Below, in pieces: positions 13,597 through 60,313 of a stretch of 64,000 nt of DNA (within the stretch, counting starts at the first letter, position 1; each line of letters starts with the position of its first letter). The DNA is from a virus. Under the pieces are notes generated by a model, which worked only from the letters and a program-made list of their open reading frames with translations, was not told the DNA's origin and searched no databases. Made by a program: the position numbers and the translations under genes. The stretch is taken from positions 1 to 64,000 of IMG/VR virus record IMGVR_UViG_3300001567_000262, one strand, 5' to 3'.

Positions 13597-13629
13597 CACA
13601 TCTTTGAGCCGGGGGCGGAATAAGCCAAG
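13597..13629 (-). promoter_or_regulatory. Conserved 33-bp promoter/operator upstream of the recombinase cassette
   Basis: CTTGGCTTATTCCGCCCCCGGCTCAAAGATGTG matches 61976-62008 at 27/33 positions. Confidence 0.6.
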
Positions 13630-13670
13630 CCGGTTGCAAAAAAAGATTTGGGGCAATCCGGACGCATGTT

Positions 13671-13731
13671 TTTCAAAGCTGAAAAGGACTTTCAAAAGTG
13701 ATTCACGCGGGGACTTTTTACCGCGGCGGGT
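13671..13731 (+). repeat. Right copy of the degenerate 61-bp direct repeat
   Basis: Same motif blocks and spacing as 11752-11812; ends 37 nt before the terL ATG. Confidence 0.7.
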
Positions 13732-13768
13732 ATGCCCGATTCCAGGAGACTGTTTGAACAACTTAGAA

Positions 13769-15289
13769 ATGTCAAAAGACCATCGCGCCATCGGGCGCAT
13801 TCTGCGCAACCCGCGGCTCTGGGGCGAGCAATACCTCAAGAACCGCGATGGAGCCGAGCGCCGCTATTGGGCGCATCAGAATGAAGACCTGGAATGCACG
13901 GCGACAAACATCATCCATCTCGACGGGCGCGATTCCGGCAAGACGGTCGATATCGCCACATTGGCGCTGCATCACGCTTTCGTGAAAATGGGCGGCTCCG
14001 TTCTGGTCGCCGCGCCGCATCAGGGCCCGGTGGACACAATCGTCGAGGAAATCGAGTTTCAGATCGAGAACAACCCCGACCTGCAGTCGAGCATCGCGGT
14101 CAACGCGCAGGGACGCCCGAAGATCACCCGGAAGCCCTATTTCAAAATCGAGTTCACGAATGGCTCCGTGATCTACTTCCGGCCAGCCGGAGCATACGGT
14201 GATCCGTTTCGATCTCTCCATGTGGAATTGATTCTCGTGGACGAGGGTGCGTGGCTTTCAGAAAAGGCGTGGAAAGCGCTGAGGCAATGCCTGAAGGCTG
14301 GCGGCAGGATGCGAATATACTCCACGCCGAATGGTCTGCGAGACACGACCTATTACCGGCTCACGCATTCTAAGAAGTGGAAAGTCTTCAGATGGCCGTC
14401 CTGGCTTCATCCGCTATGGACGGCGGAGCGCGAAGATGAACTCCTCGAGTTCTACGGCGGGCGGGACACCGCCGGATGGCAGCATGAGGTTGCGGGAGAA
14501 CATGGCCGACCGAGTTACGGCGCATTCAACCTTGAACATCTGACTGTCTGCCGACAGGACATTCCCGAATATGTGTGTGTCGATATAACCGGCGACGAGC
14601 TGAAAGATTGCGATAACGAGGAAGAACTCGCCGAACGGCTCGACATGCTGCTTGATCTCGTTCCGGCTGACGGACTGTTCTGGATCGGCGGCGACCTCGG
14701 TTACACCGCAGACCCGACGGAGATCGTGATATTCAGGGAGACATCGGAAAATGAAAAAGCTGTTCTGCGTCTTGTGCGCCGTATTCACATGGAGCGCGTG
14801 GCCTATCCTCATATTGCCCAGGCAATCGCTCTGCTGGACAGATATCTCAATCCCGCCGGCATCGGTGTTGACGCAGGCGGCAACGGACTGTCCGTGGTTC
14901 AGGAGCTGACTGCGCTCAATAAATACAAGGAACTGAATCTCGCGCCCCGGCTGCGCGGATACAACTTCGGAAGCGCTGTTGTCATCGGAGAGAACGACGG
15001 GCAGTCAATCAAAAAGAAATGCAAGGAATACATGACGAGCCTGATCAACAAGGGGCTGCAGGCGCGACAGATCATACTCCCGGCGTCGGATGTGGAAATA
15101 GAAAGTCAATTCACTACGCACACATACTCGATGAAGACCGGACAGGTCATTTATTCAAAGGGCAACGACCACATCGTGGATGCAGTCCGGTGCGCTGTGA
15201 TGATTCGGGATCAGGGACGTCTGGATGAACTTGGCGGCGGTGTTGGCGATCTTCCTCTACCCGTCATGACAAATGCGATCTTCTGTTGA
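13769..15289 (+). CDS. Terminase large subunit
   Basis: Walker A GRDSGKT, Walker B ILVDEG, YSTP motif, nuclease WIGGDLG and NDHIVDAVR. Start placed at ATG 13769. Confidence 0.9.
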   Translation: MSKDHRAIGRILRNPRLWGEQYLKNRDGAERRYWAHQNEDLECTATNIIHLDGRDSGKTVDIATLALHHAFVKMGGSVLVAAPHQGPVDTIVEEIEFQIENNPDLQSSIAVNAQGRPKITRKPYFKIEFTNGSVIYFRPAGAYGDPFRSLHVELILVDEGAWLSEKAWKALRQCLKAGGRMRIYSTPNGLRDTTYYRLTHSKKWKVFRWPSWLHPLWTAEREDELLEFYGGRDTAGWQHEVAGEHGRPSYGAFNLEHLTVCRQDIPEYVCVDITGDELKDCDNEEELAERLDMLLDLVPADGLFWIGGDLGYTADPTEIVIFRETSENEKAVLRLVRRIHMERVAYPHIAQAIALLDRYLNPAGIGVDAGGNGLSVVQELTALNKYKELNLAPRLRGYNFGSAVVIGENDGQSIKKKCKEYMTSLINKGLQARQIILPASDVEIESQFTTHTYSMKTGQVIYSKGNDHIVDAVRCAVMIRDQGRLDELGGGVGDLPLPVMTNAIFC

Positions 15290-15301
15290 AAGGCATATCG
15301 A

Positions 15302-15661
15302 ATGACCGATCAGGAACTGATAAAAGAAAAAATGGCGAGCGTCACGGATCTGCTTCTGCGAAAAAACCGCGACTACGGCAGCAGCTTCCGAAAGCCGGGC
15401 ATCCTGTCCGGCGCGCTCGATCCAAAATCGAAACTGCTTGTCCGCATCGATGACAAGCTCGAGCGCCTTGGCAATCTGCTCGATAAGGGAACGGACGGAG
15501 ATGTGCAGAACGAAAGCATGTCTGACACGGTGGACGATCTTGTCGGCTACTTCGTGCTTCTCGGCATTCTACTTGATGAACAAAAACAGGCTGGACGACC
15601 AATGAGTGTGATTGACGCTCACAACAGGCAGGACAACACACAAGGCGGAGCAACCGAGTGA
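15302..15661 (+). CDS. DUF1599 / nucleotide-modification-associated domain protein
   Basis: KNRDYGSSF, VRIDDKLERL and DTVDDLVGY motifs. Confidence 0.8.
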   Translation: MTDQELIKEKMASVTDLLLRKNRDYGSSFRKPGILSGALDPKSKLLVRIDDKLERLGNLLDKGTDGDVQNESMSDTVDDLVGYFVLLGILLDEQKQAGRPMSVIDAHNRQDNTQGGATE

Positions 15662-17190
15662 AAAAGAAGAACGGAAACAACAACCGTCATGGAACAGGCA
15701 ACCATGCCACGGGTCTGACTTTTATGAGCCCGAACATGGCGACCGCCGCCGAAATGAGCGCATCCACATTCAGTGCGCAGAACGTGAGTGACGCGATCCC
15801 GAAAACGTTTGAGGAACGCGCGACCAAGGCATGGCAGTTTTACGTCGAGGAGCCTATCGTCCAGAACGCGATCAACTCATGGCGCACGTTCGCCATCGGA
15901 GATGAAATCCAGTTCAACTGCGACGACGAGGATGTGAAATGGGAAGCCCGCGAATTCGCCGACCGTGTGCAGTTGAACAAACTCATAAAGGACAGCGTTC
16001 TTCAGTGCCTCGTGAAAGGCGAGACCGTCTGTTTCAAGCGACCCTCAAAGGATGGCAAGGACATTGAGGAAATCGTCTGTGTAAATCCGATCAGTGTGAA
16101 AGTGAAATATGAGAACGGCAAACTCATTGAAGCGAAGCAGACGCCTGAAACAGCCGGAAGCGGCGAGCCGATTGATTTGCCTCTCGAGCAGACGCTTCAC
16201 ATCAAATGGAACGCGCCGTCCTATTCCGCCCGTGGAAACTCGATGGTCGTTACGGCGTTTGAGTCCATCGAGCTGTTGCGGGACTACCGCAATGCGGAAC
16301 GCGCCGTCGCCAAGCGATGGACGACTCCGCTTCGGTTTATTCAGGTTGGCGGGCAATTCGGCCAGAAAACCATCGTGCCCGCCCAGAGAACGCTCAACAC
16401 CGTGCGCGACATGCTGAACCGCATGGATTTGAAAGCCGGTCTGGTCGTGCCGTTCTATGTTAAAGCCGAGACATACGGCACCGAGGGCCAGGTGCTGGAC
16501 ACGGAAAAGAAGATCAAGGAAATCAAAGAGGACATCATCATAGCGCTTGGGCTTGCGAAATCACTCATCACCGGCGACGGCCCGAACTTCGCAACCGCGT
16601 CCATCGGCATGCAGAAGATGGTCGTCATGCTCAAGGAAATCAAACAGGTCGCCCGCGACATTCTTAAATGGATTTTCACGGACTGGCAGAAGCTGCACGG
16701 GTACGAGGAAAAGAGCATCAACTACATCTTCAACGATCTCGATCTTACGAACGAGGTCGATCTCAAAAAACTGTATATCGAACTCTACGACCGCAAACTC
16801 ATCTCGAAGAACAGCCTACAGATTAAAATGGACCTCAATCCAGAAGTGGAAGCGTCACATACCGAAACAGAATCCAAGCAGGCTATCACGGTCACCGATC
16901 CGAAACTCATTATCGAAATGGTGAACGCCGGAATCATGTCCGTCGATTCCGCGCAGGAGAAGTTGGGACTGGATAAGGAAAAGAACAAACCCGCCACCGC
17001 CGACTGGAACTACAGGCCTCCCGCGGTAACCGGCGCGGTGGAGTTTGATACCATCTGCGACGAGTGTGAGTTTTTCGATGATGAAAACAACTGGTGCGAC
17101 GCGAACAACCGGGACACCCGGTTCGACTCACGCGCATGCACTTCGTTTGAAAGAAAACGCGCAAAGGCAGGATGCGGATGCAAGCAGTAG
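15658..17190 (+). CDS. Portal protein with a Cys-rich C-terminal tail
   Basis: Lies between terL and MuF; 510 aa; EEPIVQNAI and IIIALG..KSLI portal-like segments. Confidence 0.75.
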   Translation: MKKKNGNNNRHGTGNHATGLTFMSPNMATAAEMSASTFSAQNVSDAIPKTFEERATKAWQFYVEEPIVQNAINSWRTFAIGDEIQFNCDDEDVKWEAREFADRVQLNKLIKDSVLQCLVKGETVCFKRPSKDGKDIEEIVCVNPISVKVKYENGKLIEAKQTPETAGSGEPIDLPLEQTLHIKWNAPSYSARGNSMVVTAFESIELLRDYRNAERAVAKRWTTPLRFIQVGGQFGQKTIVPAQRTLNTVRDMLNRMDLKAGLVVPFYVKAETYGTEGQVLDTEKKIKEIKEDIIIALGLAKSLITGDGPNFATASIGMQKMVVMLKEIKQVARDILKWIFTDWQKLHGYEEKSINYIFNDLDLTNEVDLKKLYIELYDRKLISKNSLQIKMDLNPEVEASHTETESKQAITVTDPKLIIEMVNAGIMSVDSAQEKLGLDKEKNKPATADWNYRPPAVTGAVEFDTICDECEFFDDENNWCDANNRDTRFDSRACTSFERKRAKAGCGCKQ

Positions 17191-20100
17191 CTGTTGAAAA
17201 AACACTCCGCGACCGGATAGTCGAGGCGACGCTCGTGTCTTTGCACGAACGTGACCTTTATTCGGAGCAGACGGTGACCCGCGTCCTGGATTCGCTTCAG
17301 CGTTCCGAAAAGGACGTTAAAGCGAGCCTTCTTTATTACGCCAATCTCGGCTCTCTGCCCGAGGGCAAAGCAATCAATCAGGCATCCCTTAAAAAACTCC
17401 AGCAGCAAATCAGGGAACACATCCGCACCGTGCGCGACGAACATTCTCTCATCATGAAGACCGCCGTCAAAGAGAGTTACAGGTCGGGCATTCACAGCGG
17501 CATCAGCGATCTCGTCCGGGCACAGATGCCGTTTTACCGCGACCTCACGCCGGACGGCATCAAGCAATGCGGGAGCAACATCTTCACGCTCATCGATAAA
17601 GACGCGCTGGACTTCATGGCGAACTACAATGTGCAGCTCGCCGGGGATGTGTCCCGCGAATTGACTGACGGGATCAACCGCGCGATCCAGACCGGCATCG
17701 CCTCCGGCCGTAGTGTCCCGGAAATCGCAAAAGACATCGGGCGTGTGGTCAAAGACCCGGAGGAGTTCCGCAAGGCTGGGAAAACCGTTTTCAAAACGGC
17801 TCAATACCGTATGGAGATGATCGCCCGGACGGAAACGCTCCGCGCTCACAATCAGGGCCGCATGAAGTTCTACAACACGGTCGGCGTGACAAAAGTTGAA
17901 TGGATGGCCGTGGGCGACGAGCGCGAATGTCCCGTGTGCCGTGAGCTGGACGGAAAGATATTCCCGATAGACAAAGTGCCGAACATTCCCGCTCACCCGC
18001 ATTGCAGGTGCCAGATACTTAATGCCTATCCATCGGAGATATGCGGGGCGAAGAATCTCGGCGTTGTAGCCGCGCCGGCGGAAGCTGCCTGCATCCTGCC
18101 GCCGCAGACCATCGAGGACATGGCAAAGGAAAAACAGTCCGAAGCCATCAAGATCGGACAATTCATTTCAAAGGGCGAATGGGACAAACTCACAATCAAA
18201 CAGCTTCAGGATCAGGCCAAGTCAAACGGCATCTCAATCGCTCGCACCAAGGCTGATTTTCTCGATATCCTCAAACAGAAAACAGGAACTGATTTCTCGC
18301 ACCTGTCTGGTAAAGACCTGCAGGCGCTCATAAAAGAACACAAAATCGCCGCTCTGCGCAGCAAGGACGATCTGGTCGGTCTGTTGAAGGCAAAAGCAAA
18401 ACAGGAATCGGTGCCTGATTATTCCTCGATGCCCGTGTCGAAACTCAAAGAGCTGGCGCAGGAAAAAGGAATCTCTCTCAATCTTACGAAGCAGGAAGTG
18501 ATCGACATCCTCGACGTACTCGAACCCGGGGTGGACCACAGCGGGCTTTCCGGGCAGGCACTCATCGAGGCGAAAAAGAAATTCAATCTCCCGATTCTCA
18601 AAACAAAAGAACACCTCATAAAAGCTCTGGAGAAAAACTTCAAAGAGGAAATCGGAAAGAAAGTTACGAAGGAAGCCGTCGTTCAGGTCGCCGAGGAAAC
18701 AATCAAAAAGGAAAAAGACCAGATCGTTTCCCTGCTGGATGCGGTCAAAGTTTCCGCAGACCCGAAGGATTACCAGTCGGTTCTCTCCGCGATCAAGGAT
18801 GCCGAATCGTTCCTCGGCAAAGGCGGTTTCTCCGTTGACGATGCTTACCTGAAAGAGAAAGCGTCTGAAATCGTAAAGAAGAAAGACGAGTTCAAGGCAA
18901 AGATTCAGGCCATGAATTCAAAGGATTTGAAAGACCTCGCCAAGCAAAGCAAGGTCACGCACTGGCAGTGGGGTTCGAAAGACGATTTTATCGCGCTTTT
19001 CACCGAGACGGACGACGCGGTGATTCAGACCGCGAAGAACAGCATCGAAACCAAGTGGGCGAAGTGGGCGGAAAAATATGGAAAGAAGCCTGCCGCGGGA
19101 GTCCAGGCGCCGCCGCCGAAAGCGCCGCTGAAACACACGCCGCAGCCCGCTCCGGAACCGGTAGCGCCGCCATTCCTTCAAAAGCCGCACGCGGACCTGT
19201 CTTCCGGTTTCGCAAAAGTCGATTCCGACTGGGACGTGCTGGACAAGGGAAAGGCTTTCAAATACTCGAAGGACGCGAAATCACTCGGTGGCGCTCATGA
19301 AAAATACATATATATAGATGAACACGGTGACAAGTGGCTTTTCAAGCCGACGGATAAATTCATCGCGCACGGTGAAGAGATGGGCTACCGGATCGCGCGG
19401 CTCATCGATCCCGATGCCGTCGAGGTTCGATACGTCGAGCTGAACGGTCGCTCCGGCTCCATCCAGCGGCTGGTTAAGAACGTCAAATCAGAGGCGTCGT
19501 TCCGGGACATTCCCATCGGAAAGCTGTCTCCTTCCGAGATCGAGGCAATCCAGCGTGAACACATTCTCGACTGGCTTATTTCGAACCACGACGCACACGC
19601 CAAACAGTTTGTCCGCGCTGCGGACGACAAAGTCTTTGGGATCGACAAAGGACAGACGTTCAAGTTTCTCGGCAAGGATAAACTCGGCATTTCTTACCAT
19701 CCGAACTCAATGGAGGCCGAACCGATCTACAACACGCTGTTTCGGGCATACCAGAACGGCGAAATCGACATCGACCTGCAGGCGGCGCTCAAAACCATCC
19801 AGCGCATCGAGAAAATACCGGACTCGGAATATCTTGAAATCATCCGGCCTTATGTCGAGGGGCGTTTCGGCGCGAAAGCGAGCGCGGCTAAAGATGAGTT
19901 CTACCGGCTCGTGCTGGAGCGTAAAAACAACATTCGCCGGGACTTCGAGAAATTTTACAACGACCTTTATAAAGCGCGGTTCAAAGCCGAGTTCCGGTTC
20001 CAGGATGATGTCAAAACGATAAAGAAGCTGTCCGGCGAAGACGAAGCCATTCTGCGTGATGCACAGATAATGAAGGGTCAGGGAAAAGCCATGCGTCTCG

Positions 20101-21731
20101 ACGTGGACGACATCGAGGATCAGAACGCCCTCGTTTTCACACAAAAGAACATGCAGGGCAAAGAGGAAACGGTCGTTCAATTCAAATTGCGCCCGGACTC
20201 TGAGCGGAAACTCCTCGATGCACTCGGCGAAAAAGGCACCGCCTTAAAGGGCCTCGCCACCGGAGACACGCTGCCCGAGGACACCTTCTACGAAAAAATC
20301 CTGTCCGGCGTTAAGACGGTCAACCACCATGTCGACAGCGGCGATTTTAAATATAACGCGGACACGCTGGATGAGATCAGGAAGATGCTCCCCGACATTG
20401 AACAGCTTGCGAAGTCCGGCAAGACGACATCCATCCGGGACATGGCCGAGGAATACAGAAAAACATGCGAGGCTGTTCTGGATGCCGCGAAAAACAATAC
20501 AAAGATTGGTGGTAAGTTCGAGCAGTACACCGCGAAAAAGAATCTCATTGCACAAGAGGCGAAGCCGGAACCTAAAAAAGCTGGTTTCCGCTTTCAGAGA
20601 ACAAATATCAAAATGGATCAAAGGCAATGCCGCGACGGTGAAATCCACGTCGTAAAATCCGATACGGACCTGAATAACATCTTCGGACGGAGTTCTGGTT
20701 TCAGCCGTGGTGTGCAGTACCGGATCGAACTCGACGACGGCGTGGTCATGGACTACCGTCCTTGGGATTCCGCGAATCCTTACGCCGTTCAGGGACAAGT
20801 GGAAATCCGCGTCACTGGCAAGATTGCGGACCCGGAGCGGTTCGAGGCCATTCTTGACCGGCTCGACCAACTTGGAATCAACTCGGTTCCCGCAAGCGTC
20901 GAGGATGCCGAGATTATGTATTTGCAGAAACAGGCGTATCTTCTGAAAAAAGACACGTCAGCCGCGTGGAAAAAGATGTCGCAGAAGTTGGACTCTTCGA
21001 ACGCTACCAAGGCCGAGCGCATTCAGGCCATGCGAAAGTTCTGGGCGGATGAACTCGGCGTTGACGATGTGACTAAAATACCGGGATACAATCCCAACGG
21101 AAACTATGAACTCGGATTCAAGGACCCGACTCGACGCGCCGGATACAGGCACCAGATGCGGTTTGATTTGACGGAAGAGACGCTGGATCGGGAATTGAAG
21201 GGATACGGTCTGTATCACAATGTCACAGATAACGGAGACGTTGAAGACCTTGTAAAGACCGTCCTTGAGAACAACGGCAACATGGTGTCCACCGTCGAGA
21301 AAATCCGCATCGGCGTGAAGCCTGGCGGCATGTCGCCGACAAGTGATATGGGAACCGGCGGCGCGTCTTATTTCTTCACCCGAGTTCGCAAGCTGCCGAC
21401 CGCCGGCGGCCGGGGAAGCGCAGGCCTCTTCTTCAAAAAGCGGCTTCTGCGCCGGATGGATGCTATCACTTACGACCACGACGCGTTCGGGAAAGTGATA
21501 GACGATTACGTCCGCCGCAAACGTCTGACAAGTATCCAGGACTACAAAAAGTTGGCTTTGGGCGGTCGAAGTGACGAGACTATTTTCAAATATACGGTGT
21601 CGCTTGTGGATGAAATCGACGTCATCAAAACGAGCAGCGCGGCGCAGCGTGCAAAGGTCATCGAACTGTTCAAGAAGAAAGGCTTCTCAAAACTGCCGGA
21701 TGGCCGGAAGATAGAGGAAGTGGTGCTCTGA
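17172..21731 (+). CDS. MuF (SPP1 gp7-like) minor head protein with HeH-like repeats, a PI3/4K/HipA-like kinase domain and an ART-like C-terminal domain
   Basis: MuF: IARTE, W.AVGDERECPVC..LDG, PAHPHCRC. Kinase-like: GGAHEKY, WLFKP, DWLISNHDAH, GIDKG. ART-like: LYH, VST, SYFF, DETIF. Confidence 0.8.
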   Translation: MRMQAVAVEKTLRDRIVEATLVSLHERDLYSEQTVTRVLDSLQRSEKDVKASLLYYANLGSLPEGKAINQASLKKLQQQIREHIRTVRDEHSLIMKTAVKESYRSGIHSGISDLVRAQMPFYRDLTPDGIKQCGSNIFTLIDKDALDFMANYNVQLAGDVSRELTDGINRAIQTGIASGRSVPEIAKDIGRVVKDPEEFRKAGKTVFKTAQYRMEMIARTETLRAHNQGRMKFYNTVGVTKVEWMAVGDERECPVCRELDGKIFPIDKVPNIPAHPHCRCQILNAYPSEICGAKNLGVVAAPAEAACILPPQTIEDMAKEKQSEAIKIGQFISKGEWDKLTIKQLQDQAKSNGISIARTKADFLDILKQKTGTDFSHLSGKDLQALIKEHKIAALRSKDDLVGLLKAKAKQESVPDYSSMPVSKLKELAQEKGISLNLTKQEVIDILDVLEPGVDHSGLSGQALIEAKKKFNLPILKTKEHLIKALEKNFKEEIGKKVTKEAVVQVAEETIKKEKDQIVSLLDAVKVSADPKDYQSVLSAIKDAESFLGKGGFSVDDAYLKEKASEIVKKKDEFKAKIQAMNSKDLKDLAKQSKVTHWQWGSKDDFIALFTETDDAVIQTAKNSIETKWAKWAEKYGKKPAAGVQAPPPKAPLKHTPQPAPEPVAPPFLQKPHADLSSGFAKVDSDWDVLDKGKAFKYSKDAKSLGGAHEKYIYIDEHGDKWLFKPTDKFIAHGEEMGYRIARLIDPDAVEVRYVELNGRSGSIQRLVKNVKSEASFRDIPIGKLSPSEIEAIQREHILDWLISNHDAHAKQFVRAADDKVFGIDKGQTFKFLGKDKLGISYHPNSMEAEPIYNTLFRAYQNGEIDIDLQAALKTIQRIEKIPDSEYLEIIRPYVEGRFGAKASAAKDEFYRLVLERKNNIRRDFEKFYNDLYKARFKAEFRFQDDVKTIKKLSGEDEAILRDAQIMKGQGKAMRLDVDDIEDQNALVFTQKNMQGKEETVVQFKLRPDSERKLLDALGEKGTALKGLATGDTLPEDTFYEKILSGVKTVNHHVDSGDFKYNADTLDEIRKMLPDIEQLAKSGKTTSIRDMAEEYRKTCEAVLDAAKNNTKIGGKFEQYTAKKNLIAQEAKPEPKKAGFRFQRTNIKMDQRQCRDGEIHVVKSDTDLNNIFGRSSGFSRGVQYRIELDDGVVMDYRPWDSANPYAVQGQVEIRVTGKIADPERFEAILDRLDQLGINSVPASVEDAEIMYLQKQAYLLKKDTSAAWKKMSQKLDSSNATKAERIQAMRKFWADELGVDDVTKIPGYNPNGNYELGFKDPTRRAGYRHQMRFDLTEETLDRELKGYGLYHNVTDNGDVEDLVKTVLENNGNMVSTVEKIRIGVKPGGMSPTSDMGTGGASYFFTRVRKLPTAGGRGSAGLFFKKRLLRRMDAITYDHDAFGKVIDDYVRRKRLTSIQDYKKLALGGRSDETIFKYTVSLVDEIDVIKTSSAAQRAKVIELFKKKGFSKLPDGRKIEEVVL

Positions 21732-22708: not shown

Positions 22709-22810
22709 AGTCCGGAAGTATTGAAAGCCGAGCCCGGTAAACAAGTCCGGAAGCGTCGGCCCAAGCCCGGTAACAAGCGAGAGATCGCATGTTGCCGGGC
22801 TTTTTATTTT
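22709..22810 (+). promoter_or_regulatory. Repeat-rich attenuator/terminator element, copy 1
   Basis: AGTCCGGAAG twice and AGCCCGGTAA twice, then stem AGCCCGGTAACA/TGTTGCCGGGCT and a T-run; same architecture at 41604-41716. Confidence 0.7.
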
Positions 22811-22826
22811 CCCGCGAGGTGAACGA

Positions 22827-25800
22827 ATGGAAATCGAATTCAAAACCGACCTTGAGAGAATCAGCTTCCTTCTCGAAGCCGATGCCGAGTTGCGTCTCGG
22901 CCTTCTTGCCGCCGAGGGCAAACTGGAACTCGTCACAGAGGAACTGCCTCCAGAAGATCGACCGAAGTACATCACCAACTTCATCGGATCGAAGCAGAAA
23001 CTTGTGGACTGGATATGGGGTAACACGCCCGAAGACTCGGAATCCGTCTTTGACGCTTTCTCCGGCTCGTCCGTTGTCGGGTACATGTACAAAACCAAGG
23101 GACTGCAGGTCTTTTCCAACGACCGGCTGTCCTACTGCTATCACGCCGCCCGCGCCATCGTCGAAAACAACAACACCCGCCTCTCTGAAAAAGACATGGA
23201 GGGGCTTCTCAAAGACCACAACTCCAACGCGGGGACATTCATTCAGAAAAACTTCAACGGCATTTTCTTCAAGAACGACGTCCTCGCGCTTCTGGACGTG
23301 ATGCGCGAAAACATCGACGCGCTGTCCGGCACCAAAAAGAGCATGGCGCTTTTCGCACTGGGCAAGACGTGCATGTCCGGCGGCGGGTTCGGACATTTCT
23401 CGTCCAGCACAAAAGGCGGACAGCGGCACTACACCGTCGAGAGTTTCATCGAGCATTACCGGGACAACCTGCTCCGGATCAACGCGCTCGTTTTCGACAA
23501 CGGCAAGGAGAACAAAGCGTTCAACGGCGACATCCTCGACACTGCACCAAAAATCAAAGCCGACCTCGTCTATTTCGATCCGCCGTATGCCACGCAGTTC
23601 AGTTCCACAAACTACGAGAAGTATTACCACTTCGTGGAAGGCCTGATGGATTACTGGAAGGACAAGGAGATCGACCACACTAAAAAAATACGCAATTACA
23701 CAATCGAAGACCCCGGCGTCACGCCTGTTACCGCGAAACAGTTCTTCACGGATTTCCTCACCGCGTCGAAGCACATCCCCAACTGGCTTATCTCATACCG
23801 GGACAACGCATATCCAACAGAGTCCGAGATAAAGGGGATCGTCGCCGACCTCGGAAAAGACTCCCGCATGAAATCGAAAGATCACAAGTACCAGCTTGCT
23901 GGAAAGAACCGCGGGGGCGATCCTTCGAATGCGAAGGAACGGCTCTTCGTGTGCGCCGATGAAAGTGACGACGCCGCGCAAATGTCCGCCGTCGCCAACA
24001 TGGAGGACATTGCCGACCTGTCGCTCGACGCCGACTTCGATCTCGATGTCCTGAGTGCCATAGCGGGCAAGACGGACAACGTCCTCGTGACCGGATATAT
24101 CGGAAACAAGCACTTCATGATGGACTGGATCGACAAACACTTCCCGAATGATGCAAAAAGCCTGTTCGACGCATTTTCCGGCGGTGCAAACGTCGCCTAT
24201 TTCTACAAACGCAAGGGGCTGCGAGTTACGACCAACGACATAATGTCCTACCCGTACCACATCGCCCGAGCCGTCATAGAAAACAACTCCGAGACCATCT
24301 CCGACGAGGAACTCGCCGCGTTGCTTGAGAAAAACCCCGACGCCGGAACTTTCATCACCGACACGTTCTATGGGTACTACTACACGAAGCCGATTCTCCA
24401 GTTTCTCGACAACATGTGGGCGAATATCCAGAAGCTGAAGGGATACAAGAAAGACATCGCTCTTGCCGCGCTCGGACATGTCTGCAAAGCCAAGGCAGTG
24501 TTCGGCATGTTCAACCGCAGCAAGAGGAACCGGACACGGAAGATATCCGATCTGGACGAGGGCTATCGCTCCTCCAGCATCGGCAATATTCCGGTTTCCG
24601 AGTTCGTGACGGCATTCAAGAAATACGTCCGTCAGATAAATGGTCTCGTTTACGACAACGGTCAGGAGAACGCCGCGCACAACGACGACATCCTCAAAGT
24701 TCTCCCGGAGGTGAAGGCCGATGTCATCTACTGCGACCCGCCCTATATCACCGAGTTTGGAAAGAACGATTACGAGACCTACTACCACTTCGTGGAAGGC
24801 CTCATGACGTGCTGGAAAGACAAGGAGCTTCTCGACACGCCGCGCCGCAATTTCGCATCACGCACGAAGTACAACAAGGAAAGCATCGCTGAACTGATCG
24901 GCAATGTTGTCACTGCGGCGGGTAAAAGATTTTCTCACATACTCATCAGTTACCGTGACAAAGCGTTCCCGACCGAGAACGAACTCAAGGACATGGTCGC
25001 CGGGGTCTACGGCCATGTCAGCGTAAAACGCATCGCCATGACCTATGGCCTCGTCAGACGCGAAACCGACGCGGGCGGCAAATATGCGAATGAGCTTCTG
25101 TTCATAGGCAAAAAGACAGCCGCCGGCGCGGCAAAGGCCGGATGCGCAGATGATGACATCCTCGACTCTGTTGCCGCTTCCGTTCCGACCGGCAACCACA
25201 CGACAATCATCGGCGACATCCGGCTCTCCGAAGTTAACCCGCTCGCCGCAGAGGGAATCAGTCTGTCCGACAACAACGTCCAGGGCGACAAGGAATTCAG
25301 TTTCATCCTTACACACGCCGGAGCAAACAAAAACGGCGATTTCTTCACGGTCGAGGAACTCTCCGCTCGACACCAGACGTCGATCAACAAAAAAATCGAC
25401 CTCAAGCATTCGCAGGATTTCACGGACATCGTCGGCGGAATCATCGCCAGCGACTTTGTTCAGGAAGAGAACAAGTCGTGGGTGGAATGCGTCGGGGAAC
25501 TCTACATCAATGACAACATCAATTCACGTCTCGCTTACAAGCTGATCAAGAAAGGCATCATCGCACAGGTTTCGATGGAGTGCGATTACGAGGAAGGCGA
25601 ATGCTCGGTCTGCGGCAAGCGCGTGCGCAGCAAGGCGGACTACTGCCTGCATCTGAAGAAATTCAAGGGAGGTGAGTTCAAAGGACAGCCAGTTTACGAA
25701 ATTCTCCACGGCATTACCTTCACCGGTCTGGGATTGCTGGACCGCAAGGGCGCCGACGAGAACGCAAAAATAAGGCAGGTTGCGGAAAAACATTCCAATG

Positions 25801-26396
25801 AAGGAGGTAACGACAGAATGGACGGTGAAAACAAAAATCCCGAAACCGATGAAACCGAGGCGGCGAAGAAAAACGCGCCCGGTGGCGGCGGTGGCAGTGA
25901 CGCCCGAGTCAAGGAACTCGAGAAGGAGAACAAAGACCTGAAGGCCCAGCTCGACGTGGTGCAGAAGGAACTGGACAAGATGCGCGAGGAACAGGCGGCG
26001 GCAGCGCGCCGGACCCGCGCGGAAAAACTCGTCAAGGACATGGAGAACCGGGGCGTCGAGTTCTCGGACGAGGAAGACCGCGAAAGCGAGATGAAACGGC
26101 TCGCCGGACTGACCGACGACGCTTTCGAAGCGACGGAGGCTGCGGTCAAACGCATCAAGAAGAAAGACCCGAAAGCGCCGGATCAGCCACCGACCGATCA
26201 GACGCTGGAGGACACCCAGAAGCAGAAAGACAAGAAGACCCCGGCCAACAAGGGCAAGGCTGACTGCGGCTGCGGCATGAGCGCGGACGCGAACGTGAGG
26301 CCCGCCGATGTGCAGGACGGCAAAGTGCCTCTCGAAGACCAACTGAAAGACGGCTTCATGGCGGCGTACAACGAGCGCGTCGGCGCTGCCAACTGA
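22827..26396 (+). CDS. Fusion of two D12-class N6-adenine DNA methyltransferase domains, a prohead protease-like domain and a scaffold coiled coil
   Basis: Two sets of (F/Y)IG(S/N)K, FDAFSG and DPPY motifs; then GANKNGD, IDLKH and QVSME; then a charged coiled coil, directly upstream of the decoration and capsid genes. Confidence 0.85.
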   Translation: MEIEFKTDLERISFLLEADAELRLGLLAAEGKLELVTEELPPEDRPKYITNFIGSKQKLVDWIWGNTPEDSESVFDAFSGSSVVGYMYKTKGLQVFSNDRLSYCYHAARAIVENNNTRLSEKDMEGLLKDHNSNAGTFIQKNFNGIFFKNDVLALLDVMRENIDALSGTKKSMALFALGKTCMSGGGFGHFSSSTKGGQRHYTVESFIEHYRDNLLRINALVFDNGKENKAFNGDILDTAPKIKADLVYFDPPYATQFSSTNYEKYYHFVEGLMDYWKDKEIDHTKKIRNYTIEDPGVTPVTAKQFFTDFLTASKHIPNWLISYRDNAYPTESEIKGIVADLGKDSRMKSKDHKYQLAGKNRGGDPSNAKERLFVCADESDDAAQMSAVANMEDIADLSLDADFDLDVLSAIAGKTDNVLVTGYIGNKHFMMDWIDKHFPNDAKSLFDAFSGGANVAYFYKRKGLRVTTNDIMSYPYHIARAVIENNSETISDEELAALLEKNPDAGTFITDTFYGYYYTKPILQFLDNMWANIQKLKGYKKDIALAALGHVCKAKAVFGMFNRSKRNRTRKISDLDEGYRSSSIGNIPVSEFVTAFKKYVRQINGLVYDNGQENAAHNDDILKVLPEVKADVIYCDPPYITEFGKNDYETYYHFVEGLMTCWKDKELLDTPRRNFASRTKYNKESIAELIGNVVTAAGKRFSHILISYRDKAFPTENELKDMVAGVYGHVSVKRIAMTYGLVRRETDAGGKYANELLFIGKKTAAGAAKAGCADDDILDSVAASVPTGNHTTIIGDIRLSEVNPLAAEGISLSDNNVQGDKEFSFILTHAGANKNGDFFTVEELSARHQTSINKKIDLKHSQDFTDIVGGIIASDFVQEENKSWVECVGELYINDNINSRLAYKLIKKGIIAQVSMECDYEEGECSVCGKRVRSKADYCLHLKKFKGGEFKGQPVYEILHGITFTGLGLLDRKGADENAKIRQVAEKHSNEGGNDRMDGENKNPETDETEAAKKNAPGGGGGSDARVKELEKENKDLKAQLDVVQKELDKMREEQAAAARRTRAEKLVKDMENRGVEFSDEEDRESEMKRLAGLTDDAFEATEAAVKRIKKKDPKAPDQPPTDQTLEDTQKQKDKKTPANKGKADCGCGMSADANVRPADVQDGKVPLEDQLKDGFMAAYNERVGAAN

Positions 26397-26814: not shown

Positions 26815-27678
26815 ATGGAAACGAAAAAGGTCAACACGAACTCGCAGGAGTTCATGGAATCGATGGCAAAGCTGATGCGCGAGGCGCTGGAATCGCCCGA
26901 TGGCATGAGGGCGCTCGCCGCCGCAATCGCCGCACCCATCGAGCAGGACATCAAGCGCAAGGAAATCACCTCGCTTCTCCTGACGAAGCACAATCTGCCC
27001 AAGGGTGAACGCGCCCTTTACCAGAAGAAACCGCTTCTGAAGGCGTACTGGATTTCAAAGGACGGTGAAGCGCGGGAGCAGGAAATCGGCAAGGACGAGA
27101 TCGAAATCCCGACGCATCGCGTCCACAGCACGCCGATGGTCGACATCAGCGTGCTCAAGAATGGCAACATCGGCACGCTCACGGACATCCAGACGGCGTC
27201 CTCGGATGAAATCCGCAAGGAGATCGACAAACGCACGATCACCGTCATCTCCAGTGCCGTACCCGCCGAGAACGTTGTCACTATCTCCGGCGGTGTTCTG
27301 ACCGAGGACAGCCTCAACGACGCCATCAGCATTCTCGAAGACAAGGAACTGACCGTGAAGTACATCGTGCTTCGCGGAAAACGCTTCAACGAGATGCGGG
27401 CATGGGACCTCGACCCGGTCACCCAGCTCGAACTTCGCCAGAAAGGCATCATCAAAGTGTACGGCGGCGCGAACGTGCTGCTTACCTCCGCGGCTGATGT
27501 GAACGAAATTCTTCTCATCCCCGACGAGGAAATCGGCAAGATGCCCGTCCGCGAGCCTCTCACGGCGGAAGCAATCGACAAGAAACTGAAATTCAAAACC
27601 GGCTGGCTCATCTGGAGCGAACTCGGCATGGGCGTCACGCGCCCGGACATCGTCTCCAAGGTCGTCATTCAGCCGTAA
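26815..27678 (+). CDS. Major capsid protein (HK97-fold)
   Basis: Position, size, strong RBS and strongly biased codon usage. Confidence 0.75.
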   Translation: METKKVNTNSQEFMESMAKLMREALESPDGMRALAAAIAAPIEQDIKRKEITSLLLTKHNLPKGERALYQKKPLLKAYWISKDGEAREQEIGKDEIEIPTHRVHSTPMVDISVLKNGNIGTLTDIQTASSDEIRKEIDKRTITVISSAVPAENVVTISGGVLTEDSLNDAISILEDKELTVKYIVLRGKRFNEMRAWDLDPVTQLELRQKGIIKVYGGANVLLTSAADVNEILLIPDEEIGKMPVREPLTAEAIDKKLKFKTGWLIWSELGMGVTRPDIVSKVVIQP

Positions 27679-58249: not shown

Positions 58250-58329
58250 CTTCTCCGATGCTTTTTTACAATCCGTCTCGATTGAGCGAAACCTTGATCA
58301 GCAATACCAACAAACTTGATAATATATAT

Positions 58330-58346
58330 AGCAATAAACGTGCCAA
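58330..58346 (-). promoter_or_regulatory. Sigma-54 (-24/-12) promoter of the RiPP operon
   Basis: TTGGCACGTTTATTGCT on the minus strand matches consensus YTGGCACGNNNNTTGCW, about 80 nt upstream of the rSAM ATG. Confidence 0.85.
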
Positions 58347-58600
58347 CGCTAACCAAGATTTTGATTTGTCTGCTTATGTTTGTTTAGGTAACGGGGCACA
58401 GATTCCAAAAACGCCTTTTGTTACTGGGCAATATCAATAAAATATAGAATGGGTTTGTCTATAATAAATGCATTCCTGTAGAAACAATAACTTATAAAAA
58501 CTTGACATTGGCTATATCAGGATATAGAAAGACTATATAGGAGTCTATGTTCCGTGGACGATTGGAAGATGCTGGCCACAAAATGGGGGAGGTAGCCGTT

Positions 58601-60313
58601 ATGCGAAGAGCTGTCTTTTGTCTAATTGGGGAATTTAGCGATCAGGTGCCAAGGAATTCTGATTTATGGGAAAGATTTCGCCCCACAGTCGCCATAGGTA
58701 CGCAAAAGAACATTGAATTCACATATATGCTGATTGTTTACCAATCACAAAGGCCCGATCATGTATCACTGTTAAAGACACTATGCGATGATATTGCCCA
58801 AATTAGAGACGAGTCTGGATCGCCATCCCTTAAAATAATAGAAGTGCCCGTGGAGTTTCCCGACATTCATGATTTTGCCACTACATATACAGTCGTTCTT
58901 AAAGGATTGAAGGAATTTCTTCCCGAAGATTGTGAAGAAGTATATTTACACATGAATACAGGATTTCATACTATGCAATTTGCAATGTACACGATTGCAG
59001 AGCAGAGACTGTTGCCACAACCAATATTTCTTGTACAGACCATTCCTGGAGAGGGTGAGAGGATAAGCAATAAGGAATCAAACACAATATGTAGTGTTGC
59101 CAGAATACTCGATCTATCGTGGGTAAAATACCCAGAGATAAAAACCGATGTTGAAAAAAGAAAGTATCCCTTCCAAACAAAGTGGGATGCTACTATACCA
59201 GAAAATCAGAAACTCCGAATTTTGTACGAAAATATGATGTTGATTGGGGGGAAAACTGTCGATCCTTTGATTCTTCTTGGTCCCACGGGGTCGGGTAAAA
59301 CGTTTATTGCTAGGATTATTCATGAGCAGTGGTGTTTTATTATAAGACAGGCTAATTACGATGAAAGCAACAACGCCCCACCTTTTATGGAATTCAACTG
59401 TGCGGGATTATCAAGGGAATTAGCATATTCTCAACTATTTGGGCACAAAAAGGGCGCATTTACAGGGGCTCATGCAGATCAGTCTGGTCTTTTTGAACAA
59501 GCTGACCGCGGAACTCTGTTTCTCGATGAGATAACAGAACTTGATCTACAAACTCAAGCCATGCTATTGAAGGTTATCGATGACGGAAAATATTTTCGAT
59601 TGGGAGATTCTCGCAAAATACCACTAAAGGCAAACGTGAGAATCATTTGTGCAACAAACAAAAACCTCGAACAAATGGTACACGCGGGTGCATTCAGGGA
59701 GGATCTCTATGCCCGTTTACGAGCATGGGTGTTCAGACTTCCAAGCATAAGAGAAAGGTTGGAAGATATTGAACGCTTGATAAATGAATTCTTAGGAACC
59801 TGGAGAAAAGAAAAAGCATATGAGTTCAGATCGAAGATCGATTTTGAACCGCTCGCAAAAAAACGATACATTGATTTTTCTTGTAGCGAACAGGCACTAT
59901 GGATAGGGAATCTTAGAGATTTGCGACTATCAATTTATCGGATGGCAACTCTGGCCAGTCTTCGTAGCGATGGAAGTTATAGTATGATCAATATGGATAT
60001 TGTTGAAGAGGAGATCGAAAGGTTGAAAGACATTTGGCAAAGAAATTTTGATGATGATATTGACGATACGAATTTGTATCGCACATTGACAAAAAGAGTT
60101 AAGAACCAATACCCAGATAAATCAATCGTTATAGGGACGGAGCTGTTTTTGCGAGATATTTGCTTGGGAGAACTGAGAAAAATGGGATGGCGCGGTACTT
60201 TAGCCGAGGCTTATCGACGCATCTATTCTACCGAATCATGTAATATAAAAAATCCTACAGACCAATGGAAAAAGCGTGGCAATGCAATATCGGAGCCCGG
60301 CAACGCGGTATAG
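58601..60313 (+). CDS. rtcR: RtcR-like sigma-54 activator (CARF-like sensor + AAA+)
   Basis: WERFRPTV and HMNTGFHTMQ resemble the RtcR N-terminal domain; GPTGSGKT, intact GAFTGA, LFLDEI, FREDLYARL. Start follows GGAGG. Confidence 0.8.
   Translation: MRRAVFCLIGEFSDQVPRNSDLWERFRPTVAIGTQKNIEFTYMLIVYQSQRPDHVSLLKTLCDDIAQIRDESGSPSLKIIEVPVEFPDIHDFATTYTVVLKGLKEFLPEDCEEVYLHMNTGFHTMQFAMYTIAEQRLLPQPIFLVQTIPGEGERISNKESNTICSVARILDLSWVKYPEIKTDVEKRKYPFQTKWDATIPENQKLRILYENMMLIGGKTVDPLILLGPTGSGKTFIARIIHEQWCFIIRQANYDESNNAPPFMEFNCAGLSRELAYSQLFGHKKGAFTGAHADQSGLFEQADRGTLFLDEITELDLQTQAMLLKVIDDGKYFRLGDSRKIPLKANVRIICATNKNLEQMVHAGAFREDLYARLRAWVFRLPSIRERLEDIERLINEFLGTWRKEKAYEFRSKIDFEPLAKKRYIDFSCSEQALWIGNLRDLRLSIYRMATLASLRSDGSYSMINMDIVEEEIERLKDIWQRNFDDDIDDTNLYRTLTKRVKNQYPDKSIVIGTELFLRDICLGELRKMGWRGTLAEAYRRIYSTESCNIKNPTDQWKKRGNAISEPGNAV

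Follow-up and report, generated by a model that had tools for sequence, protein, structure and literature searches.

A predicted head-maturation gene of a temperate tailed phage joins two Dam-family methyltransferases to a nested protease and scaffold

The 64,000 nucleotides analyzed here (the window) are positions 1 to 64,000 of the 133-kb provirus record IMGVR_UViG_3300001567_000262 of IMG/VR. At positions 22827 to 26396 of its plus strand, a single stop-free open reading frame (ORF) of 1189 codons was found, encoding a product of 131 kDa in which two DNA adenine methyltransferases (MTases) of the Dam family precede a prohead protease and a scaffold tail. On balance we favor the view that the ORF serves a temperate tailed phage in head maturation, as a nested protease/scaffold gene to which two Dam-family MTases were added at the N-terminus, and that these MTases would be carried in the head and ejected from it. 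The fusion is a real, conserved, and well-defined design with a predicted function, and we hold its architecture and nested gene organization with high confidence, both starts being presumably in use.

According to the scheme that we propose, one frame would give two products, the 131-kDa MTase 1–MTase 2–protease–scaffold protein and a 192-residue scaffold from the ATG at 25818, and both would co-assemble with the 287-residue major head protein around the portal. As the two products have the coiled coil and the terminal helix in common, their co-assembly would bring the protease and the tethered MTases inside the procapsid; the fused parts would enter because a protease-scaffold protein assembles inside procapsids. 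The protease, with His861 and Ser916, would then cut the scaffold and the disordered linkers, and the small fragments would exit, while the folded MTases of about 40 kDa would stay in the head and most likely be ejected with the DNA. After ejection they would methylate the incoming genome ahead of the host restriction enzymes, an outcome that P1 DarB reaches in another way. Encapsidation of the MTases we consider probable. Ejection with an anti-restriction role, proposed by analogy, is offered more tentatively, the ejection step being drawn from precedent only (P1 DarB and the T4 internal proteins).

Domain organization of the fusion protein

The features of the gene, all on the plus strand, are as follows.

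22816 to 22822, plus strand: Shine-Dalgarno (SD) sequence of the full-length product, GAGGTGA, 4 nt 5' of the ATG at 22827
22827 to 26396, plus strand: full-length ORF, 1189 residues (MTase 1, MTase 2, prohead protease, scaffold tail)
22962 to 23960, plus strand: MTase 1, residues about 46 to 378, Dam-family D12 fold, motif I DAFSGSS, motif IV DPPY at 251 to 254 (Pfam, motifs, model)
23961 to 24086, plus strand: linker 1, residues about 379 to 420, disordered and variable, an insertion hot spot among homologues
24087 to 25115, plus strand: MTase 2, residues about 421 to 763, paralogue of MTase 1, motif I DAFSGGA, DPPY at 637 to 640
25116 to 25289, plus strand: linker 2, residues about 764 to 821, disordered, weakly conserved except for an invariant His-Thr at 791 to 792
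25290 to 25781, plus strand: predicted prohead serine protease domain, residues about 822 to 985, assemblin/T4 gp21 fold, closing motif G-A-D-x-x-A at 975 to 980
25602 to 25652, plus strand: Cys3His zinc-ribbon-like insert within the protease, C926, C929, C940, and H942 (alignment of relatives)
25801 to 25808, plus strand: internal SD sequence AAGGAGGT, inside the codons for E-G-G
25818 to 26396, plus strand: nested in-frame ORF for a predicted 192-residue scaffold-only product, residues 998 to 1189, co-terminal with the fusion
25896 to 26150, plus strand: scaffold core, helical and coiled-coil-like, residues 1024 to 1108 (coiled-coil family matches, model)
26331 to 26390, plus strand: conserved C-terminal helix, residues 1169 to 1188 (L1169, L1173, G1176, F1177, A1180, Y1181, R1184)

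A sequence-only reading of the window had described an unbroken ORF with two complete D12-class MTase domains (DPPY at 23577 and 24735), a protease-like domain from about 25290, and a scaffold tail. This anatomy was borne out in full: the 1189 codons contain no stop, Pfam D12 was matched twice with both DPPY at exactly these positions, the protease starts at about residue 822 and has the T4 gp21/assemblin fold, and the model gave the tail a long helix, further helices, and a conserved terminal helix. Continuity of the frame in homologues, the check that the same reading had named, was observed in a second copy within the record, in more than 450 clusters of fused proteins, and at 78 genomic loci. 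An assembly or annotation artefact, or a decayed fusion, is therefore rejected, since the second copy is intact, independent assemblies supply hundreds of further intact homologues, some of them in the complete genomes of Desulfosarcina and Syntrophus grown in culture, and the catalytic motifs are invariant. The second copy lies at 110988 to 114554 of the record, 88 kb downstream and outside the window, is 91% identical, and has no stops, indicating that the record contains either two related prophages or a large duplication.

The Pfam family D12 (PF02086) matched the protein in two stretches with 154 bits against a cut-off of 22, and a six-frame search of the whole record placed these stretches at 22980 to 23633 and 24096 to 24788 (singly 95.5 and 71.4 bits). 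The S-adenosylmethionine (SAM) motif I, D-x-F-x-G, is present in both modules, and two DPPY per protein were found in all of the 121 fused homologues examined. In the full-length model the MTase domains were confident at residues 55 to 378 and 428 to 763 (pLDDT about 90), and the best Foldseek matches of the domain models were E. coli Dam, DpnM, and T4 Dam (probability 1.00, TM-score to target about 0.5). By motifs and fold both modules are intact Dam-family (D12) MTases, with methyl transfer as their predicted activity. A search of NCBIfam gave a sub-threshold 'dam' as its sole match. PHROG 27806, annotated only as 'DNA methyltransferase', spans residues 420 to 1186, indicating that a one-MTase version of the fusion already sits, unremarked, in a phage protein family.

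For the region of residues 790 to 1010, 975 relatives were found among 1.8 billion representative proteins. Near-invariant in an alignment of 35 relatives were N-x-N-G-D, His72, Ser127, Cys-x2-Cys...Cys-x-His, and a closing A-D-x-x-A; the equivalents in the window protein (H861, S916, C926, C929, C940, H942, and D977) were all kept in 121 of 121 fused homologues. Modelled alone, the domain reached a pLDDT of 86. Its best structural match was the T4 capsid assembly protease gp21 (5jbl; Z 11.4, root mean square deviation 3.0, 127 residues aligned), with further matches to varicella-zoster virus (Z 11.3), human cytomegalovirus (8.4), and Kaposi's sarcoma-associated herpesvirus (7.3), against Z 6.9 or less for unrelated folds; herpesvirus proteases and gp21 also made up the top rows from Foldseek. 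One relative, P0218 (E 8e-14 to the protease domain), passes the Pfam family Peptidase_S78 with 21.9 bits against a cut-off of 21, and more distant relatives match the PHROG 'head maturation protease' families phrog_18299 and phrog_3244. Because the fold matches gp21 and the assemblins while the link in sequence to S78 runs only through relatives, the domain is taken, on alignment and model, for a divergent offshoot, bearing a zinc-ribbon insert, of the prohead proteases of assemblin fold (MEROPS S78, S77, and S21), and not for a plain S78 member. When solved structures were searched by sequence with both halves of the protein, only zinc-finger look-alikes and nothing useful were obtained. No other protease of the Peptidase_S78 or ClpP type was found in the 133-kb record.

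The internal start and the scaffold tail

In the model, the junction between protease and scaffold (residues 985 to 1023) is disordered and is followed by a long helix (1024 to 1074), two more helices up to residue 1108, a second disordered stretch, and the terminal helix. The residues of this last helix, 1169 to 1188, are among the most conserved of the tail, and it is a candidate for the capsid-binding element. Within the disordered junction, AAGGAGGT lies 9 nt 5' of the in-frame ATG at 25818 (residue 998). This is the strongest ribosome-binding site of the ORF, exceeding that of the first codon. The second copy, the Desulfosarcina gene (with a protein of 51% identity), and one metagenome fragment all have the identical eight bases, followed by an ATG, at this junction.

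Pairing of the junction start with the 16S tail was at or below −8 kcal/mol in 67 of 76 loci, with a median of −12.1, a figure that is somewhat flattering as the best of a few candidates per locus and that includes many loci of close relatives. For 2860 other in-frame start codons of the same ORFs, the mean was −3.3 and the 1st percentile −9.5 kcal/mol. The cleaner test of the internal SD is the comparison of codons. In 34 of 36 distinct loci the two glycines beneath it are encoded by GGA-GGT, while among the 3005 glycine codons elsewhere the shares of GGA and GGT are only 12% and 11.5%. The nucleotides, and not only the amino acids, are under selection here. A promoter scan detected none convincing inside the gene, and the short product would thus come from translation, not from transcription. 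With the internal SD and ATG conserved, a separate 192-residue scaffold is expected, relative to which the full-length fusion would probably be the minor product. The sequence-only reading was supported in its logic, by which the fusion would be led into the procapsid, as well as in its anatomy; it had, however, overlooked the internal ribosome-binding site.

Nested protease/scaffold genes are known as C/Nu3 of lambda, I/Z of Mu, and UL26/UL26.5 of herpesviruses, the lambda gene having reportedly been described by Shaw and Murialdo in 1980. As in these systems, one frame would encode a long protease-scaffold protein and also, by internal initiation, a short scaffold that shares its C-terminus. 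The likeness to the C/Nu3 type extends to the location directly before the major capsid gene and to a protease of the assemblin-type fold. An in-frame internal start with its own ribosome-binding site was found at the protease/scaffold junction, and the gene lies between the portal/minor head genes and the major capsid gene, with no other S78- or ClpP-type head protease found in the record. In contrast to that type, about 820 residues of DNA-modifying enzymes precede the protease here, and the protease carries the Cys3His zinc insert.

Conservation of the fusion and fate of the methyltransferases

Fused proteins of 1150 to 1400 residues form the clusters counted above, and the 78 loci in public genomes are spread over many phyla, including Thermodesulfobacteriota, Acidobacteriota, Planctomycetota, Chloroflexota, Nitrospirota, Zixibacteria, and Calditrichota, and further Kiritimatiellota, Spirochaetota, Gammaproteobacteria, and others. 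The closest relatives (88–92%) are in the anaerobic-digester metagenome-assembled genome (MAG) 'bacterium ADurb.Bin236', and the cultured carriers with complete genomes are Desulfosarcina alkanivorans, D. widdelii, and Syntrophus buswellii. In a collection of 50,697 phage records, megablast with 12 kb gave nothing, and tblastn gave partial matches only, to an MTase of Erysipelothrix phage phi1605 and, for the protease part, to gp19 of Bacillus phage G.

The protease domain occurs in three settings: N-terminal in proteins of about 400 residues, behind one MTase (about 730 to 880 residues), and behind two. The stand-alone protease-scaffold P0138 is complete, its contig holding an upstream gene and a 134-nt spacer; another stand-alone form, P0125, was set aside as unreliable, lying 40 nt from a contig end. 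The linkers, disordered in the model and variable among homologues, accept extra modules in relatives. About half of the two-MTase homologues (1250 to 1300 residues) have an extra module of about 90 residues, located between MTase 1 and MTase 2 in P0016 and P0035 and between MTase 2 and the protease in P0002; one recurrent type opens with E-T-x-N-E-I-R-Y-R and belongs to no Pfam family. Four relatives of about 1000 residues (P0130, P0131, P0136, and P0156) consist of an MT1-type MTase, a module of about 250 residues in the place of MTase 2, and the protease-scaffold, and this middle module had no usable match in the Atlas (score 0.83). N-terminal extensions of 120 to 250 residues on some fusions matched no Pfam family and may be truncated gene calls. 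The Bryobacterales assembly OZ252029.1 (9.1 Mb) carries four separate fusion copies (L036, L038, L039, and L068), of which L036 has a shortened frame.

M.FokI carries two D12-class adenine MTase domains in one chain, and an analogy with it had been drawn from the two D12 domains. The analogy holds in that two D12 modules share one polypeptide, and the NCBI pipeline called one homologue 'Modification methylase FokI'. Pairing of the modules is, however, not required. Single-MTase fusions are mostly of the MT1 type (up to 60% identical to MTase 1 and 35–40% to MTase 2), and one is of the MT2 type; each type being found alone, the two appear to be independent enzymes, not two halves for one asymmetric site. 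In addition, MTase 1 and MTase 2 are only 40% identical over 342 residues (E 3e-84), extra domains separate the modules in other relatives, M.FokI is without head-assembly domains, and the six-frame search of the 133-kb record detected no D12 outside the two fusion gene copies. A single M.FokI-like enzyme, with one module for each strand of an asymmetric site, is thus improbable, and MTase 1 and MTase 2 are therefore regarded, as far as sequence comparison goes, as old, separately viable enzymes.

Many phages guard their progeny DNA with soluble orphan Dam-type enzymes. The MTases described here might likewise act on replicated phage DNA in the cytoplasm of the producing cell late in infection, the fusion only matching their amount and timing to head assembly or keeping them close to sites of packaging, and the head-borne copies being degraded or inert. 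The model, with complete MTase folds on flexible linkers, is consistent with such action, and nothing in the sequence stops the fusion from acting before assembly. For co-expression, however, an adjacent gene would suffice, whereas the fusion has persisted in over 450 clusters from many phyla while the linkers change. This retention, with linkers that vary freely, points to selection on the physical linkage to the capsid-targeting tail, and we consider an exclusively cytoplasmic role rather unlikely, though the most serious competitor to carriage in the head.

Methylation of DNA during packaging, by MTases tethered to the inner shell, was also considered; it is the first of the options named in the sequence-only reading. 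The tail would set the enzymes on the inner capsid surface, and small molecules such as SAM can cross capsid pores. Fast packaging and dense DNA, however, suit base flipping poorly, only the early-packaged DNA would be accessible, which enters the next host last, and we know of no precedent for methylation inside a capsid. This explanation is regarded as very improbable. Loading of the procapsid, in contrast, is supported in its logic by the synteny, the fold, the invariant catalytic residues, and the widely kept fusion.

Several points weigh against carriage in the head followed by ejection, or against the gene model beneath it. No proteomic, methylome, or expression data were found for the phage or any relative. 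DNA might be methylated by the fusion while still in the producing cell, ahead of assembly, and packaging may then not be the selected function; the MTases might also be degraded, as prohead proteases often destroy internal proteins. The protease domain of the window gave no match to Pfam Peptidase_S78 (PF04586) or S78_2 (PF14550), and H861 and S916 are a candidate catalytic pair, placed by invariance and family pattern. The spacing of 9 nt from the internal SD to its ATG is near the upper limit of common SD spacings. Finally, a motif C/K-A-D-E/D/C was noticed at 23955 to 23966, 25167 to 25178, and 26256 to 26267 (residues about 377 to 380, 781 to 784, and 1144 to 1147), where it follows each MTase and recurs about 45 residues from the C-terminus; among homologues, [AKQ][QK]-A-D-[DE] is frequent at these three positions and does not occur in the MTase cores. 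Like the R and M sites of herpesviruses, it may be a protease cleavage mark, but it was picked post hoc in low-complexity sequence and is not relied on.

A C-terminal targeting tail of the HK97 protease is said to have been described by Duda, Oh, and Hendrix in 2013. Passages of a published account state that the T4 internal proteins and Alt carry short capsid-targeting sequences, which are removed by the prohead protease (PMC9024508). As in T4 and HK97, the cargo would enter through the binding of one segment to the core or shell under assembly and would then be trimmed by the prohead protease; there, short peptides are carried on separate proteins, whereas in the window gene cargo, protease, and scaffold form a single polypeptide. 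DarB of P1 is a DNA adenine methyltransferase and a head protein of about 40 copies that shields incoming DNA from restriction (PMC9024508), and the predicted carriage of an adenine MTase in the head is common to both systems. DarB, however, is a separate 250-kDa protein with a helicase and an MTase of a different family, and its targeting depends on an N-terminal signal of 30 residues together with helper Dar proteins instead of a covalent fusion to the protease-scaffold (PMC9024508). The fusion may work like DarB, by analogy, though not as a member of its family. A DarB-like methylase-helicase dyad (EcoKI/TaqI-like MTase, SNF2 helicase, and LPD36) was rejected, as family searches of the fusion protein detected only D12 modules and no match to helicase families.

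The general principle is already published. Iyer, Burroughs, Anand, de Souza, and Aravind (2017) described phage polyvalent proteins, in which, according to passages of that paper, an assemblin-like peptidase, if present, is always C-terminal and probably processes the protein at virion assembly (PMC5512222). In those passages several effector domains in one late-gene polypeptide are predicted to be packaged, and here likewise at least two effector domains were found in one late-gene polypeptide of a portal-terminase phage. The methylases there, in contrast, are EcoKI- or TaqI-like and paired with SNF2 helicases, and the searched passages of PMC5512222 contain no D12/Dam-type module, scaffold tail, or nested scaffold start. 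The gene described here is a combination of the nested protease/scaffold gene and a predicted polyvalent capsid cargo, with Dam-type MTases and with a function that is predicted. A literature search found no publication on a Dam-type MTase fused to a protease-scaffold, its coverage being poor for subscription journals, so that this absence is not proof.

If the enzymes are truly packaged, the fusion would be a second, and much more widespread, phage route after P1 DarB for carrying an MTase into the next host, achieved simply by joining the enzyme to the capsid's own protease-scaffold. Nature would then have its own version of what is engineered in capsid nanoreactors, where cargo is loaded by scaffold fusion. 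The forms with zero, one, and two MTases make a ready comparative series, and the design lends itself readily to testing, since relatives are present in cultured hosts whose genomes are complete.

Genomic setting and distribution among hosts

The fusion gene stands in the order large terminase, portal, MuF protein, two small ORFs, fusion gene, 119-residue ORF, and major head protein, that is, in the slot between portal/MuF and major head gene that is the usual place of the prohead protease/scaffold in tailed phages. The neighbors are as follows.

13604 to 15289: large terminase
15658 to 17190, plus strand: portal (phrog_2739, E 1e-52)
17172 to 21731, plus strand: MuF-type minor head protein, 1519 residues (PF04233, phrog_6577)
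26815 to 27678, plus strand: major head protein, 287 residues (phrog_2522, E 1e-77)

A matching order was observed in a prophage of Desulfosarcina alkanivorans (terminase, portal, MuF, 1284-residue fusion, 120-residue gene, 287-residue head protein, sheath, and tube). The MuF-type protein of the window extends about 1200 residues past the MuF domain, with a short stretch of this extension matching an endonuclease VII PHROG, and is a probable second capsid-carried cargo of the same head module. Upstream of the fusion gene, at 22730 to 22815, repeated AGCCCGG boxes and a GC-rich hairpin with a T-run behind it end 12 nt short of the ribosome-binding site. This hairpin, which is absent from a simple terminator scan because its loop is long, may gate transcription into the genes for head assembly.

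Among relatives, the 15.8-kb head regions of one sub-lineage share 91–98% nucleotide identity across genomes labelled as different phyla. In three long assemblies a shared prophage of about 69 kb, containing a relative of the fusion, stands between unrelated flanks: the Syntrophus buswellii DM-2 chromosome (L019, NZ_CP175563.1:140435-156274), a Zixibacteria chromosome (L020, OY969724.1), and a 2.97-Mb Desulfosarcinaceae contig (L017, CAXXYD010000004.1). The copies of Zixibacteria and Desulfosarcinaceae are 95–98% identical in nucleotides, and the 16S genes on the same contigs 81.4%; the Syntrophus copy is 90–91% identical to the other two, and 16S identity across the three contigs is 81–86.5%. 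Further copies of 95–98% were found in MAGs labelled Nitrospiraceae, Phycisphaerae, Anaerolinea, Ozemobacter, and Treponemataceae. These observations suggest either an unusually broad host distribution of the fusion-carrying phages or errors of assembly or binning.

The apparent breadth of hosts bears on how temperate phages cross restriction barriers. The protease-scaffold of this lineage might be a general cargo slot that loads MTases into every capsid, the ejected enzymes methylating the entering genome as a host-independent anti-restriction system. We consider this wider proposal unlikely; if true, it would help to explain how near-identical relatives of this prophage, with 97–98% nucleotide identity over about 67 kb, come to be in chromosomes with 16S genes of only 81% identity.

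The left border of the prophage is a tRNA-Asn(GTT) gene (L084:13549-13624), and in one genome the similarity begins inside the tRNA, which suggests integration into a widely conserved tRNA; a search for an attR, as a repeat of the tRNA-Asn on the right border of the approximately 69-kb prophage, gave none. In the record analyzed here, the G+C content falls from about 0.55 to 0.37–0.40 over about 8 kb at 52000 to 60000, past the last phage-like genes, and this part is probably non-phage DNA.

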